Positions 33,001 through 39,000 of a DNA stretch of 64,000 bases are shown piece by piece. A program made the position numbers. Position 1 is the first letter of the stretch. The number at the start of each line of letters is the position of its first letter. The DNA is from Pirellulales bacterium. Lineage in GTDB: Bacteria > Planctomycetota > Planctomycetia > Pirellulales > PALSA-1355. The stretch is from assembly GCA_963733035.1 (NCBI GenBank), contig CAVTBU010000007.1, positions 384,001 to 448,000 of the forward strand, given 5' to 3'.

Positions 33001-36000
33001 CCAGTTCTCCGCTGTGTCGAAATCGGGACGCTGTTTGGAAAATCCGTGCGCCAAGCCTTCGGACAACTGTTGGCTATCGGCGCGGCCGACCATGTCGTAG
33101 TGAAACACAATGCAGCCCATCCGGGCGAGCTGTACGCAACGCGCCTGCAACGGCGATCGCGCGCCGTTCATAAATCGCTCGGCGCCGGCCACGATTTGCT
33201 TCTTGGCCTCCGCTTCGCCGGCATCGTAAAAGCGACCGTCGGCCCAGTGACCGTGCGGGCACAAAACGGCTGGCAGCTTTCCCTCCTTGCCGGTGGGGCG
33301 ATACAGATTGCCTGTCACGAAATGACCCGGGTAACTTTCCAGGTAGACGCGCTCGACGGTGTAGCCTTCGCGATCGATCTTGCCGTGCACCACGGCGTTG
33401 TGCGGCGTGCGCTCGGGCATCGGCCACAAACCGTTGGCCACTAGGACCTGTCGCCGTACGTCCGCGGCCCGACGGGTCCAATCTTCTTTGCTGGGCGACG
33501 GGGTAAACGGAAAATATCCGTTCAAGTCTTTCAGAGGTCCCAAGCGAACGTCATTTGGCGTTTGCCCCTCGGGCAAGATTCGGGGCCCAGCAGCGATGGC
33601 TGCCGGCAGCATGGCACCCAACACGAACAAACAAAGCGCAATTCGACGAGCACACGAAAAATACATCATGGGAGTCACGTCTCGGGGGTAACGCGGTTCA
33701 GCTTCAGGTTGGATCGCTAGGTAGGATATACTGGCCCCCGTCCAGAATAGGTGCTAGCGGGCCAGAATTCCAGCGTCCCGGACGTTTGGCGGGCCGAAAT
33801 CATATCTCGGACACCCTTCCTGATTGGGGCAACTGACGAGGAGTTCATGAGCGATCGACATCGGGCCGTCTATGTCGCGGCCAACGCCCAGCAGGCTCAT
33901 ATGCTGCGGAACCTATTGGCCGACGCCGGCATCAACTCGTTCGTCAGCAACGACACGCTGAACGGCGTCCATTTTTCCCCAGGCGACTGGATGGTCCGCG
34001 CCGCCGGTGGTCCTGGGTTCGAGCCCACCGCGCCCAAGATCGTTGTTCACGAGGACCATGCCGAACAGGCTCGACAAATCCTGTTGGCAGCGGAAGTCAC
34101 GCTCGACAGCGGCGAGGCCTCGCCCGAATTAACGCGGCTGGTCGCCGAAGCCGACGCCGACGCGCACTGGCCAGCATGCCCACATTGCGGTCGGCCGCGT
34201 CTGGCAACTTGTCCGATCTGCAAGTCTTCGGGAACCGACTTCGCCGAGGCTTTCTTGCCAGAGTCGGACGATATTGCGACCGACGAGCAGCAGCATTTGG
34301 TGCTTTGTCCGACCTGCGACGAGGCGTTCGCGCCGCGCTATCCGGCCCGCTGCGAATGGTGCGGACATCGATTCCGCGACGGCTACGAAGCGCCCGAGCC
34401 GAAGCCGCTTCTCTCGCCGCCGCAATTGCCGGCGGACATGAACGGCCGCGTGGGGCTATTACTGCTGGGAATGGCGGTCGTACTGGCAGCACTGTTCGGT
34501 TGGTTTTCCTTTTTGGTCGAGCGCTGATCGCGGTGGATGCCGCCAACTAGCACCGACGACACGGTTGACCAGCGGTGCGAATGCCACCCGCGGCGCGACG
34601 GCCCAAACGCCGTCGGCGTTGCCTCCGGGCTAAACGCGATGCCGGTTGCCGAAGACGCTATTGTTTGCCGATTTCGGCCAACGGCAGTTCGCCTTCCATC
34701 TGCCGAATCTCCTCGGTGATCTTCATCGAGCAGAACTTCGGGCCGCACATGCTGCAAAAGTGAGCACTCTTGAAGGTGTCTTGCGGCAGCGTTTCGTCGT
34801 GCATTCGGCGGGCCGTTTCCGGATCGAGTGAAAGTCGGAACTGCTCGTTCCAGTCGAACTCGAACCGGGCCTTCGACAGGGCATCGTCGCGCTCGCGAGC
34901 ACCCGGTCGATGTCGCGCTAAATCGGCCGCATGAGCTGCGATCTTGTAAGCCACCACGCCCTGCTTGACGTCGTCGTTCTCGGGCAAACCAAGATGTTCC
35001 TTCGGCGTGACGTAGCATAGCATCGCCGCGCCGCTCCAACCGGCCAGTGCGGCGCCGATGGCGCTGGTAATGTGATCGTAGCCCGGCGCCACGTCGGTCA
35101 CCAGCGGACCGAGCACGTAGAACGGCGCCTCGTGGCAAACCTGCATTTGCCGCTTGATGTTCATGTCGATCTGGTCCATGGGGATATGTCCCGGGCCTTC
35201 GACCATCACTTGCGTATTCTTTGTCCATGCGCGCTTGGTCAGTTCGCCGAGCGTATCGAGCTCGGCGAACTGGGCTTCGTCACTGGCATCGGCAATCGAA
35301 CCCGGTCGTAGTCCATCGCCCAGGCTCCAGGTGACGTCATATTCGTGCATGATGTCGCACAGGTCTTCAAAGTGCGTGTAGAGCGGGTTCTGCTGGCGAT
35401 GGTGCATCATCCACTTGGCGATCAGCGAGCCGCCGCGACTGACAATGCCGGTCACGCGTTTGGTCGTCAGGTGCAAGTGTTCGAGCAGCACGCCGGCGTG
35501 GATCGTCATGTAGTCGACCCCCTGCTTGGCCTGGTGCTCGACCATGTCCAGAAAGTCCTGTGGCTTCATGTCGCAGATGTCTTCCATCTGCTGCACCATT
35601 TGGTAGATCGGCACCGTGCCAATGGGCACCGGCGACGCGTCGATGATCCCCCGGCGAATGGCGTCGATATCGCGGCCCGTCGAAAGATCCATCACCGTGT
35701 CGGCACCGAAATGAACGGCCGTGTGCAGCTTCTCGAGCTCCCCGTGGATGTCGCTGGTCACCGCCGAGTTCCCGATATTGGCGTTGATTTTGGTTTTCGA
35801 CGCCACACCGATGCACATCGGTTCGAGCCGCTTGGTCAGGTGCACCTTGTTGGCCGGGATCACCATGCGGCCGCGGGCAACTTCGTCGCGAATGAATTCG
35901 GGAGCCAGATTCTCGCGCTTGGCGACGTACTCCATCTCGGGCGTGATGTGACCGCCGCGTGCCTGTTGGATCTGAGTCATGACTGACGTAACGCCTCCCT

Positions 36001-39000
36001 GAAGAACCCGAGAAATTGCCTGGCGCCGTTTCGGGCCGAAATTCCCGAAAAAACCTGCCGAAAGTCATCGTATCGGTCGTAGAGTGTTTGTCAATTCAAA
36101 GCGTATGCCGTCACGATGCTTTGGGGGCCGGCCCGGCAGTTGCGAATCGGGCTGTGCAACTCTCGCGTGGCATCACGTTGGCGGCCGTGCTATATTCGAG
36201 CCATACGAGGGGGCACGAGTATCCCAGCTGTGCGATGGATTCGCTCGTCGCCTTCCGGTTGCTCACGTGGAGAACCACGATGAAATCCGTCTCGCTCGTA
36301 GCGCTTTGCGCATGTAGTCTTTTTCTTGACGCTGCCCGAGCTGCCGACGAACAAGCCGACCAGCAAAAACTCCAGGGCAAGTGGATCGTCGACTCGTTCG
36401 AGTTCGACGGTATGCCAGTCGATCAAATGACCGGCGCAACCCGCGAGTTCGTCGGCGACAAATACACGCTCGTCCCCAAATCTGGCGAGTCCTACAGCGG
36501 CACGTTCAAGCTCGCGCCGGGCGAGTCGCCCAAGCAAATCGATCTGATCATGCCCGACCGAACCCTTCAGGGCATCTACGAGCTGGACGGGCAAATTCTA
36601 AAGATGGCCTATACGCTCGACGGCGACGCGCGACCAACCGAGCTTGCAAGCAAACCGGGAACCGGTGTCGTGCTAGTCGTGCACAAGAAAGCGAATTAGC
36701 CGAACTGAAGCTGTTTAGCCCGGAGCCAGCGGCGAAGGTGCTTTTGCACGACCCGCCACAGACGTCCACGGCGATATTTCCGCGCAATTGAATTCCGTCG
36801 CGCGGCAGCTACAGTGTCTTCAAGTACTCGAGCACCGCCTGCTTTTCATCGTCGGTCAGCGCATCGGGAAACGTGTGCCCTGCGGCGCTTTTGCCGAATT
36901 GCGTGGTGTCGAAATACTTGCGGCGCTCGCGACCCGACTTCACGTCCGCCGGAAGCTCGTCAAAGGTGGCAATCTCCAGCCCGACGTTTTGCTGATCGTA
37001 GCCGTCCTCGGTGCGGCGCCACACTTTGGGCCGCTCGCTGGGATGCAGCACGTGCCATAGCGTCGGCACCGCGCCGTTGTGGAAGTACGGCCCAGAGGCC
37101 CAAATGCCGTCCAGCGGCGGGGCGACGTAGCCGCCCGGATCGTCAACCGTCTCATCCTCGCCGAAGTGGCCAAACCACGTCTTGGCATAGCCGCGCCGGT
37201 GCTCGGGCGAAAGCGACTTGAGCCGCACAGGATCGGTGGCGACTTCCTCGATCGGCACGATCTTGTTCGGATAGGTCTCCTCGGCGCCATAAGTGCCGTG
37301 ACAGTCGGCACAGTGATTGTTAAAAACCACCTCGCCCTGCCCTGCCAATTGCTTGTCGACTGCAAACGGGTATGCCGGCGCTTCGAGCGATTCGAGCCAG
37401 GCGTAAACTTCCTCGAACTCGTCTTCGAGTTCCGCGAACTGCTTCGGCCCATTTTCCGGAATCAGCATGAACTGCATCAGCGGTCGGTGCCCCTTGGGCG
37501 CAAAACCGTCGCAGTAAAGATGCGACTTCTTTTTGAAGTTCCACCAGGCCGGGGCATCGTGATCGTGATGCGTCATCGGCGGCGGCACACTCGGCCTGAA
37601 GTTCAACTCGGGGTCGCGATTGGCCATCAGGGCCACGCCAAACATCACGGCGTTGGTTGTGCCATTGCTCGTGCCCAGGGGAAAGACGGTCGAGGCCAGA
37701 TCCATTCGCGCCAGCTTCTTATGAAGCTTCAGCTTCGTGCTGCGGACGTCCTCCATCAGCGTCTGCATCGCGAAATGCGAATTCGGCACACCGGGAATCA
37801 CCATGCCCGCTACCTTTCCCTGGTGGCAAGATAGGCAATTCATCGTCCAGGTGCCGTTCGACTCGACGACGTATTGTTGCGGCTTTCCGGACGTGTCACC
37901 GGGAGTGGAGGTGAAACCGTACCGCGAGAATGCCATTTGCCGCCGCTCTTCGGGAGTCGCCTTTTCGGCCTCGCTGCGTGCTGGCTCTTCCCAGACCTGC
38001 CAAATGTTGTCGAACACCTCCTGATCAAAGTCGGCCGACAGGATCGGCTCGCTGGTCAGAAATTTGTAACCGGCCGCGGCATAAGCCTTTGGAACAATCG
38101 GGTCGATCTGGATGGCCAGCGGATTGTCGGCGGCCAATGCGAGTGAAGCGGCGAAAACCGCTGCCAGCGAGGCCGAAACGGTGAGCCTCATGCGATCAAC
38201 TCCCGAGGGTGGTGCGTTGCGCGTTAGTGTAACACGCCGCCACCAAGAAAGAAATATCCGGACAAGTCGGTCCATAGCCCACCCCGGCTTCCGGCGAACG
38301 ACTGGTAAATGGTTTTGGGATGCGGGCGCGCTCGACCGCTGCAAGGTTTCCTGGGTGCGGCACCGCGACTTACCACCTTGTTGTCAGTTGCGAGTTCGTT
38401 GCTTGTAGAGTCCCCAAAAGTCCGGCGCGACGGTTTCCCGGTTCGGGTCGCTTCGGGTGAAGAAGTACTGGGGGCCCAGGTGGGCAAGAACCGCCTCCTC
38501 GCGGGCCTGGTATGCGGGCGTGTTCCACGATTCGGGAGAGTCGGCCAGCGACAGGAGCACGCCATCACTAATCGCATGCGCCTCGCTGGCGGGTGCGGAG
38601 ACGAGTTGGTCGCGTCCGATCAGGTTCACATAGACGTTGCCAAAGTAATTCAGCCAGTACAGCCCAGGAAGATACTTTGTCAGCCGAATACCCACTGCCC
38701 AGGTTCCTTCTTGGTCGCTGTGCATATTCTTGGCTTCGAACTCCTCTCGCAGATGAGCGTGCCCGTACGTAATGGGCAACTGAGCACAGATGTCCCGAAA
38801 CAACTTGTGGACCGTTGGCACGACCGGACTGCCTTCGATGGACGGGAGATCAAGAAACTCGATTGAGAGTCGGTTCATGTCAGGAGGGTATGTTGTGTCG
38901 CAGTAATGCAGATAAAACCTGGCGCCGGGCTGCTTGGTCCATAGAACGCCACGTCCCAATCCCCTCCGAGGTGGAAGCGACTCGTGTACGAATTCATAGA

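Follow-up and report, generated by a model that had tools for sequence, protein, structure and literature searches.

The TPP riboswitch (RF00059) is the most widespread riboswitch class, and the thiC gene in the stretch of Pirellulales DNA analysed here (64 kb, hereafter the window) raises two questions: whether this riboswitch is truly missing from the gene, as a first-pass annotation had claimed, and, if so, whether anything has replaced it.

The thiC locus

The gene at 34658..35980 (minus strand) was assigned as thiC from its open reading frame and NCBIfam equivalog matches, and encoded a short-form phosphomethylpyrimidine synthase of 440 aa. Its predicted product exceeded all three NCBIfam ThiC equivalogs, each against its own cut-off (NF006763, 721.9 bits with a cut-off of 650; NF009895, 687.6 bits; TIGR00190, 681 bits), and scored 502.8 bits against the BzaB exception model, below the cut-off of 700. 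As judged from these scores, the gene is one for a full ThiC and not for a BzaB paralogue. It lay about 34 kb into the window, which is itself part of a 752-kb contig, and its upstream region was intact.

An intergenic region of 299 nt (35981..36279) separated thiC from a divergent gene with an ATG at 36280 (36280..36699, plus strand; open frame confirmed). The product of the latter, 139 aa with a signal-peptide-like N-terminus, possessed a TIGR03067 (Planctomycete) domain, which scored 70.8 bits in NCBIfam on the longer frame; a Pfam search of this gene gave no match, and the gene is unrelated to thiamine. Since a convergent gene with a DUF2007 domain (33751..34527, plus strand; Pfam PF09413, 34.8 bits) lies downstream, at the 3' side, thiC was considered to be monocistronic.

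Search for a TPP aptamer in the genome

RF00059, whose gathering score is 54.3 bits, gave no match in the genome (92.28% complete) at E<=10 and none in the window at the gathering score; Rfam searched at E<=10 over positions 35700-36700 yielded three chance matches to unrelated families, none of them RF00059. A covariance model of our own (R1), built from Planctomycetota TPP aptamers and run without filters, recovered 3/3 held-out aptamers with 41-52 bits and scored no higher than 9.3 bits anywhere in the window. A strict regex descriptor made from the invariant columns of a TPP aptamer alignment (A1) matched 21 of 24 known aptamers and had 0 sites in this genome; that is, the TPP core (GGGG..G, CUGAGA, ACC, ACCUGA and the GCG...GGA sensor helices) was not found by the descriptor. 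The thiSG, thiE, thiL and thiO loci, scanned permissively with Rfam, had no match at E<=1, and no TPP aptamer was matched in the 5' leaders of thiC, thiS-thiG, thiE, thiL and thiO. Riboswitch detection works in this genome, where a cobalamin riboswitch scored 86.9 bits. The four methods (RF00059, unfiltered R1, permissive Rfam scan and regex descriptor) thus agree with the earlier claim that neither the genome nor the 299-nt region upstream of thiC holds a TPP aptamer.

Distribution of the riboswitch in the order, class and phylum

The RF00059 searches over more than 40 genomes (order, class and phylum samples) were run with stricter filters. Among 101 Pirellulales genomes, 95 of which carried thiC, none had a match above the cut-off, as had been reported for a smaller sample. 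Seven of them had sub-cut-off matches of 18-21 bits; these were rejected as thiC riboswitches, six being on a contig other than that of thiC and one 724 kb away from it. R1 without filters, applied to 60 Pirellulales thiC upstream regions, gave a best score of 12.4 bits; this match, in locus L080, lay upstream of the promoter and was treated as chance. Altogether, searching without filters through the window and 100 upstream regions turned up no aptamer, and every held-out positive was recovered, which answers the worry voiced with the first-pass annotation that speed filters could have hidden the riboswitch. The lack of a TPP riboswitch ahead of thiC is genuine, both in this genome and in the Pirellulales that were sampled.

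In the class Planctomycetia, RF00059 was present in 25 of 121 genomes, namely 22/24 of family f34 and 3/3 of family f38, with one match per genome guarding thiC alone; the riboswitch is kept by two families of the class, not by one only as had been stated. In the phylum sample, 42 of 141 genomes had a match. The statement that other classes keep the riboswitch held only in part: 77 of the 118 thiC-bearing genomes outside Planctomycetia were without an RF00059 match, and absence was confirmed without filters for 20 of these 77. The loss is wider than previously described.

Probable loss in place at orthologous thiC

In 10 of the 11 f34/f38 loci with a callable downstream ORF, the aptamer directly preceded thiC with a gap of 7-157 nt; in the exception (L011) the first called ORF was not thiC, and tblastn put thiC some 90 nt past the aptamer. 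In a tree of ThiC proteins extracted by tblastn, the short-form ThiC of the class made up one clade (SH-aLRT 95), within which the riboswitch-bearing subclade was nested. By this tree, the thiC of the window and the riboswitch-preceded thiC genes in f34 and f38 are orthologues, and the topology points to loss in place rather than gene replacement. A TTGACN-N16/17-TAnnAT promoter was located directly before the aptamer in 3/12 f34/f38 loci, and -10-like hexamers were observed in some further ones. The word GACCTGA, present in 4 of the first 10 leaders of family f32, was considered as a possible aptamer remnant and dropped as chance plus relatedness; among 27 f32 leaders ACCTGA occurred in only 5, and the word varied within one genus (g94).

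Promoter and leader of thiC

A putative sigma-70-type promoter, TTGACA-N16-TACGAT, was located upstream of thiC in the box CGATACGATGA (36067..36094, minus strand), with 10/12 consensus positions, comprising a perfect -35 (TTGACA, 36094-36089) and, after a 16-nt spacer, the -10 (TACGAT, 36072-36067). Of 61 regions upstream of thiC in Pirellulales, 45, representing 22 of 26 families, had the conserved box described earlier, and in these 45 regions the -10 stood a median of 102 nt ahead of the start codon. In 39 aligned thiC promoters, the fourth -10 position was G in 34, and the hexamer was followed by G in 30 and then by A in 26. Only 5 of the 36 generic TTGACN-N16/17-TAnnAT sites of this genome are TA[CG]GAT, and the logo compared with these sites indicated that the thiC -10 region is more constrained than the generic promoters; the exact box TTGACA-N14-17-GATA[CG]GATG was unique to thiC within the genome. 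In the logo of the 39 promoters, conservation did not extend upstream of -37 or more than 2 nt past the -10, and neither a palindrome nor a second conserved block was seen around the promoter. The same type of -10 precedes unrelated genes, as had been noticed before, for example tRNA-Leu at C5:2678740 and, in part, tRNA-Val and thiO. The -10 boxes of the riboswitch-bearing relatives were mostly of TAcAAT type and not TA(C/G)GAT, a single phylogenetic contrast. The unusual -10 constraint may reflect an operator or a special sigma factor; no other hint of a trans-acting regulator emerged.

With the start inferred from the promoter, about 7 nt past the -10, the predicted 5' leader of thiC is about 80 nt long (35981..36060, minus strand) and contains no aptamer. 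The sequencing data listed for positions 35400-36500 were DNA metagenomes of small share, with no RNA run among them. Its minimum free energy was -20.1 kcal/mol (z = +0.56 versus 200 dinucleotide shuffles), the terminator scan revealed no terminator-like site in it, and no convincing Rfam match was obtained. The leaders, previously compared by sequence alignment, were here assessed through their folding energies and the words enriched in them. The folding z-scores of the Pirellulales leaders had a median of -0.17 (n=45), indicating no general excess of structure; z was below -2 in 5/45, with lineage-specific long hairpins unrelated to each other. Leader length had a median of about 100 nt, the shortest being about 55 nt and 9/45 being at least 186 nt. 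The only enriched words were the Shine-Dalgarno context CACGGAGG and T-runs, consistent with the earlier finding of non-conserved leaders apart from this limited shared content. The window leader thus shows no conservation and no unusual structure, and because the aptamer is also gone, the thiC mRNA is without a cis-acting TPP sensor.

Other thiamine genes

The previously listed thiS-thiG, Clp_N-ThiD2-ThiE and thiL were found in the genome along with thiC; the list had missed thiO in the window (50720..51874, minus strand; TIGR02352, 272.6 bits with a cut-off of 250.8; Pfam DAO, 230.8 bits), which encodes the glycine oxidase of the thiazole branch, and thiG turned out to be split over two frames by a frameshift seen in this assembly only, the gene being in one piece in 19 relatives. 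Canonical ThiD was absent from the genome; the ThiD2 domain, going by its Pfam name, presumably acts as the kinase. Upstream of thiO, a -10-like box, CGATACAATGG, and a short leader were observed, with no RNA family matched at E<=1. Inspection by eye revealed no shared motif upstream of thiS-thiG, thiE and thiL. No thiamine importer of the PnuT-type, ThiT or ThiB families was found in the genome, these being three of the known kinds of thiamine transporter. Two candidate links were rejected: the Clp_N extension of ThiD2-ThiE as a substitute control point, since the extension or an open frame of equal length was present in riboswitch-bearing and riboswitch-less families, and a tie between canonical ThiD and riboswitch presence, since ThiD was scattered over 13/121 class genomes (f34, 1/24; f38, 0/3).

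Possible explanations for the missing riboswitch

The sequences show that the aptamer is missing, that thiC is orthologous, that the promoter has been retained and that the leader is neither conserved nor especially structured. From this we favour, at about even confidence, a deletion in place. An ancestral TPP riboswitch before thiC would have been deleted on the branch from which Pirellulales and most other Planctomycetia families descend, and the old promoter, a near-consensus sigma-70-type TTGACA-N16-TA(C/G)GAT, would have been kept, now leading into a short non-conserved leader that ends in a strong Shine-Dalgarno sequence. The gene would be transcribed and translated constitutively, and thiamine supply would be set by enzyme-level effects rather than gene repression. 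Constitutive expression appears the most likely mode from the sequence evidence. The absence of any control fits the data as well as control by other means; the assertion that some other control of the thiamine genes must exist goes beyond the evidence, no replacement element, RNA or operator, having been found.

A tentative alternative, to which we assign a smaller though appreciable likelihood, is that a trans-acting thiamine-responsive protein replaced the riboswitch by acting at the CGATA(C/G)GATGA box that is conserved in thiC promoters, as a repressor overlapping the -10 or as a dedicated sigma/anti-sigma pair. Such a protein would account for a -10 conserved beyond what the generic promoters of the genome need, for the uniqueness of the exact box and for the TAcAAT-type -10 of most riboswitch-bearing relatives, the last being one phylogenetic contrast; however, the promoter has no palindrome or second conserved block, the box recurs before tRNA-Leu and partly before tRNA-Val and thiO as a general high-GC -10, the other thiamine genes inspected share no upstream motif, the ThiN/ThiR domain was not found (PF10120, E<=0.001, in the 92.28% complete genome), and no candidate protein emerged. 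The narrower proposal that Planctomycetia evolved a protein-based thiamine sensor on CGATA(C/G)GATGA after the loss seems unlikely.

It is improbable that the thiC leaders conceal a thiamine sensor made of RNA, whether new or very divergent. The nine long leaders and the five that fold far better than their shuffles would suit it, as would the comparison of leaders by folding energy and words; yet an aptamer together with an expression platform would not fit into most leaders, the median folding z and that of the window leader show no excess, common words are confined to T-runs and the Shine-Dalgarno region, the leaders that fold well form long hairpins that are unrelated and belong to single lineages, the ACCTGA words of f32, at first remnant-like, are not conserved even within one genus, and unfiltered R1 gave nothing. 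Least probable is a technical artefact, that is, an assembly gap, an effect of the speed filters or an aptamer in an unexpected place. The incomplete genome, the stricter filters in the large searches and the confinement of the filter-free covariance search in this genome to the window would leave room for it, but thiC lies deep in its contig with the upstream region intact, so that the earlier exclusion of a gap stands; the filter-free searches were empty, with all held-out positives recovered, the independent descriptor had no site genome-wide, and 0/101 relatives passed the RF00059 cut-off.

Comparison with known systems

Deletion in place, if correct, means that a large free-living, thiamine-synthesising clade lost the riboswitch from an orthologous thiC and kept the promoter, with no recognisable RNA substitute, offering a clean natural experiment on whether thiC requires any feedback control. 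Constitutive expression would make this a modest point on evolutionary riboswitch loss; a protein sensor, if true, would represent an undescribed type of bacterial thiamine regulator, and cultured Pirellulales would be the place to look for a non-riboswitch regulator. No paper on TPP riboswitch absence in Planctomycetes was found in a literature search that left most subscription-journal papers outside.

The f34 and f38 relatives have the orthologous thiC with the same kind of promoter and the TPP riboswitch 7-157 nt before the start, whereas in this genome and the 101 Pirellulales the aptamer is missing, with no CUGAGA/ACCUGA core and nothing above 21 bits. The housekeeping sigma-70 consensus of Streptomyces and other high-GC bacteria is TTGACA/TAGGAT-like; the thiC promoter resembles it in the perfect -35, the 16-nt spacer, TA(C/G)GAT and G at -14, and boxes like it precede tRNA genes in this genome, but the middle and flanks of the thiC -10 are conserved order-wide, more strongly than in the other promoters of the genome. 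ThiR is a known protein-based control of thiamine genes in riboswitch-less lineages, reportedly described by Rodionov et al. in 2017 as a thiamine repressor of archaea whose sensor domain is ThiN-like; this genome differs in having no ThiN domain at the threshold given above and no repeat resembling an operator at its thiC promoter.

According to Sun et al. (2013; PMC3766115), a survey of 24 bacterial groups in which Planctomycetes were not covered, the TPP riboswitch was missing in only six species, and some species with thiamine genes, e.g. Bartonella and Lawsonia, lack it. These resemble the present case in having thiamine genes in a genome without the riboswitch, but they are single host-associated species among the six exceptions (PMC3766115), whereas here the absence extends over a whole large-genome order, most of its class and about two-thirds of the thiC-bearing genomes elsewhere in the phylum.

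The thiC locus

The thiC gene was located at nt 34658–35980 of the window on the minus strand, with an ORF of 440 aa whose product scored 721.9, 687.6, and 681 bits on three NCBIfam ThiC equivalog models, all above their cut-offs, and fell under the cut-off of the model for the ThiC-like protein BzaB. A convergent gene encoding a DUF2007 protein lies downstream, and thus thiC stands alone. The intergenic region upstream (nt 35981–36279; 299 nt) is bounded by a divergent gene that starts at nt 36280 and encodes a small protein with the Planctomycete TIGR03067 domain. Since the locus lies about 34 kb inside the 64-kb window, on a 752-kb contig, a leader element cannot be concealed by an assembly gap.

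Search for TPP aptamers

The 6.6-Mb genome has no match to RF00059, the Rfam TPP riboswitch model, at E ≤ 10, and the window has none at the gathering score, while an Rfam scan of nt 35700–36700 (E ≤ 10) returned three chance matches only, all to unrelated families. Two independent checks were added because the first-pass annotation, which held that this genome has no TPP riboswitch, had raised speed filters and divergence as doubts. One was a covariance model (R1) built from 21 Planctomycetota TPP aptamers and run with filters off, which recovered 3 of 3 held-out aptamers at 41 to 52 bits. Based on an RNAalifold consensus structure of 17 pairs without P1 and giving rough E-values, R1 reached at best 12.4 bits in the upstream regions of 60 Pirellulales thiC genes (500 nt plus 60 nt of coding sequence each) and the other thiamine-gene loci of this genome, and 9.3 bits over the entire window. 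For the second, the invariant positions of the aptamer were written as a regular expression; the strict form of this descriptor recovered 21 of the 24 known aptamers and had no site in this genome, and its loose form matched all 24 together with 18 genomic sites, which were rejected as aptamers, the rest of the core being missing in every one. At E ≤ 1, the thiS-thiG, thiE, thiL, and thiO loci likewise had no match in a permissive Rfam scan. The claimed absence was thus borne out by RF00059, unfiltered R1, the descriptor, and the permissive scan. A cobalamin riboswitch at C5:2435995–2436224 (86.9 bits), in agreement with the single one annotated earlier, indicates that riboswitches are in use and detectable in this genome.

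Distribution in the order, class, and phylum

The RF00059 cut-off was reached in none of 101 Pirellulales genomes, 95 of which had a thiC; seven matches of 18 to 21 bits were rejected, as none adjoins thiC, six being on other contigs and one 724 kb off. Within the class Planctomycetia (thiC in 119 of 121 genomes), the riboswitch was found in 25 genomes, belonging to the anonymous families f34 (22/24) and f38 (3/3), so that two families keep it instead of the one previously stated. No RF00059 match was obtained in f32 (0/28), f33 (0/27), f35 (0/5), f36 (0/2), f37 (0/2), or f31 (0/1), and R1 with filters off scored no higher than 9 bits on 20 upstream regions taken from the riboswitch-less class families outside Pirellulales. 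Outside the class, thiC was present in 118 of 134 sampled genomes of the phylum, 41 of them with a TPP match. The other 77 had none in a filtered search; for 20 of these, the 1.2 kb preceding thiC was rechecked by R1 with filters off and by a permissive Rfam scan, and no aptamer was revealed, the remaining 57 absences coming from the filtered search alone. Thus, lack of the TPP riboswitch at thiC is common throughout Planctomycetota and no peculiarity of Pirellulales.

ThiC orthology

In f34 and f38, the aptamer was located 7 to 157 nt ahead of thiC in 10 of 11 loci with a callable downstream ORF, and the ThiC N-terminus at these 10 loci matches that of the window thiC; at the remaining locus (L011), an ORF other than thiC was called first, and thiC itself lies some 90 nt past the aptamer. 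A TTGACN-N16/17-TAnnAT promoter stands immediately ahead of the aptamer in 3 of 12 f34/f38 loci, and -10-like hexamers occur there in others.

In a ThiC tree of 39 rows (quick IQ-TREE search, LG+G4; rows with fewer than about 330 aligned residues excluded), the short-form ThiC of the class formed one clade (SH-aLRT 95), in which f34+f38 (the subclade with the riboswitch; support 99) stands next to f32, f35, and a group that includes f31, f36, f37, all Pirellulales, and a single f33 member. This topology indicates that the Pirellulales thiC is the same orthologue minus the leader element and no replacement gene. At least three state changes are needed on the tree, at least two of them forced by well-supported branches; the tree does not fix the branching order among the four short-form lineages, and the riboswitch may have been lost once or several times.

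Most f33 genomes (loci L116–L118 and L178) encode ThiC in a long form (open frames of some 620 to 650 aa), and their thiC has no TPP riboswitch either. This form clusters with ThiC from other classes, away from the short form of its own class, and is probably a gene replacement.

Promoter and leader of thiC

The predicted thiC promoter consists of a -35 box TTGACA (nt 36094–36089), a 16-nt spacer, and a -10 box TACGAT (nt 36072–36067), with 10 of 12 consensus positions. Transcription would start near nt 36060 on the minus strand, some 7 nt beyond TACGAT, giving a leader of roughly 85 nt. Among 61 Pirellulales upstream regions (this genome and 60 others; 26 families), TTGACN-N15-19-TAnnAT was observed in 45, from 22 families, nearly always with a 16-nt spacer, and the distance from the -10 box to the start codon ranged from 55 to 440 nt (median 102 nt). 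A logo of 39 aligned promoters showed conservation limited to aATTGACA and cCGaTA(C/G)GATGA, neither the leader nor the stretch ahead of -37 being conserved. Compared with dinucleotide shuffles, the leaders were not unusually structured (median z = -0.17, n = 45), that of the window folding at -20.1 kcal/mol (z = +0.56); five of the 45 had z < -2, due to unrelated long hairpins in single lineages. Enriched leader words were the Shine-Dalgarno context CACGGAGG and T-runs only.

Very long near-perfect hairpins were seen between the promoter and thiC in three other Pirellulales (loci L083, L096, and L056; z = -18, -5.4, and -5.2, respectively). They look like inserted, lineage-specific inverted-repeat elements.

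The statement that the same -10-like box precedes unrelated genes was confirmed for tRNA-Leu (TTGGCA-N17-..GATACGATG), and portions of the box precede tRNA-Val and thiO; it is thus a general promoter form. Nevertheless, the -10 box is more tightly constrained at thiC than elsewhere in this genome. In the 39 aligned promoters the fourth -10 position is G in 34, and the hexamer is followed by G in 30 and then by A in 26; only 5 of 36 intergenic-like TTGACN-N16/17-TAnnAT sites in this genome have TA[CG]GAT, and the complete box occurs once, at thiC. Either selection for maximal promoter strength or an overlapping binding site may account for this constraint.

The -10 boxes were TA(C/G)GAT-GA in riboswitch-less lineages (39 Pirellulales) versus mostly TAcAAT-type in f34/f38 (L008–L019), a difference that amounts to one phylogenetic contrast only. 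As for the tRNA genes, 44 of the 96 predicted in this genome lie within about 27 kb (C6:241456–268412), forming a tRNA gene array that is possibly carried on a mobile element.

Other thiamine genes

The thiamine genes listed earlier, thiS-thiG, thiD2-thiE, and thiL, were all found, and the list had left out thiO. The latter (nt 50720–51874 of the window, minus strand; 272.6 bits) encodes a glycine oxidase, is situated 15 kb from thiC, and is preceded by a CGATACAATGG -10-like box and a short leader. Outside the window, thiS-thiG was located at C5:2493650–2494722; thiG (C5:2493926–2494722) is in two reading frames with a break near C5:2494175 that appears to be a one-base length difference in this assembly. 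It is unbroken in 19 of 19 relatives with a match, and the split reflects either an error in the assembly or recent pseudogenization. The thiL gene lies at C1:72846–73757. The 537-aa ThiE protein combines Clp_N, ThiD2, and ThiE (TMP-TENI) domains and is encoded at C10:94441–96054 (locus L034:1438–3051, minus strand); its N-terminal extension occurs in lineages with and without the riboswitch.

Canonical ThiD was not found in this genome and is rare in the class (13/121), whereas ThiD2-ThiE was present in all 121 class genomes, f36 differing in form by having ThiE alone together with canonical ThiD. This pattern fits a substitution of ThiD by ThiD2, a role suggested by the Pfam name. No ThiN/ThiR domain and no PnuT-type, ThiT, or ThiB importer was found in this genome.

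Possible regulation of thiC

Riboswitch-bearing relatives have one RF00059 match per genome and the sensor controls thiC alone, so that, once it is lost, nothing of the known thiamine regulon is left. The data are explained most simply if thiC lost its sole cis sensor and its expression, driven by a strong ancestral promoter, is now constitutive. Control by a trans-acting regulator is possible, and the constrained -10 region could serve as its operator; however, neither a candidate regulator nor an operator beyond that region was found. A hidden RNA sensor in the thiC leaders is unlikely, because these are short, variable, and unstructured.

The absence can be set beside known exceptions. According to Sun et al. 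(2013, PMC3766115), each of the 24 bacterial groups in their study has TPP riboswitches and only six species lack one, some of these having thiamine genes; Planctomycetes were outside that study. A literature search, which reached few subscription-journal papers, found no published report of TPP riboswitch absence in Planctomycetes. What is uncovered here is an absence and not a mechanism; as far as these sources extend, it is thus a new and large case of a known type of exception.
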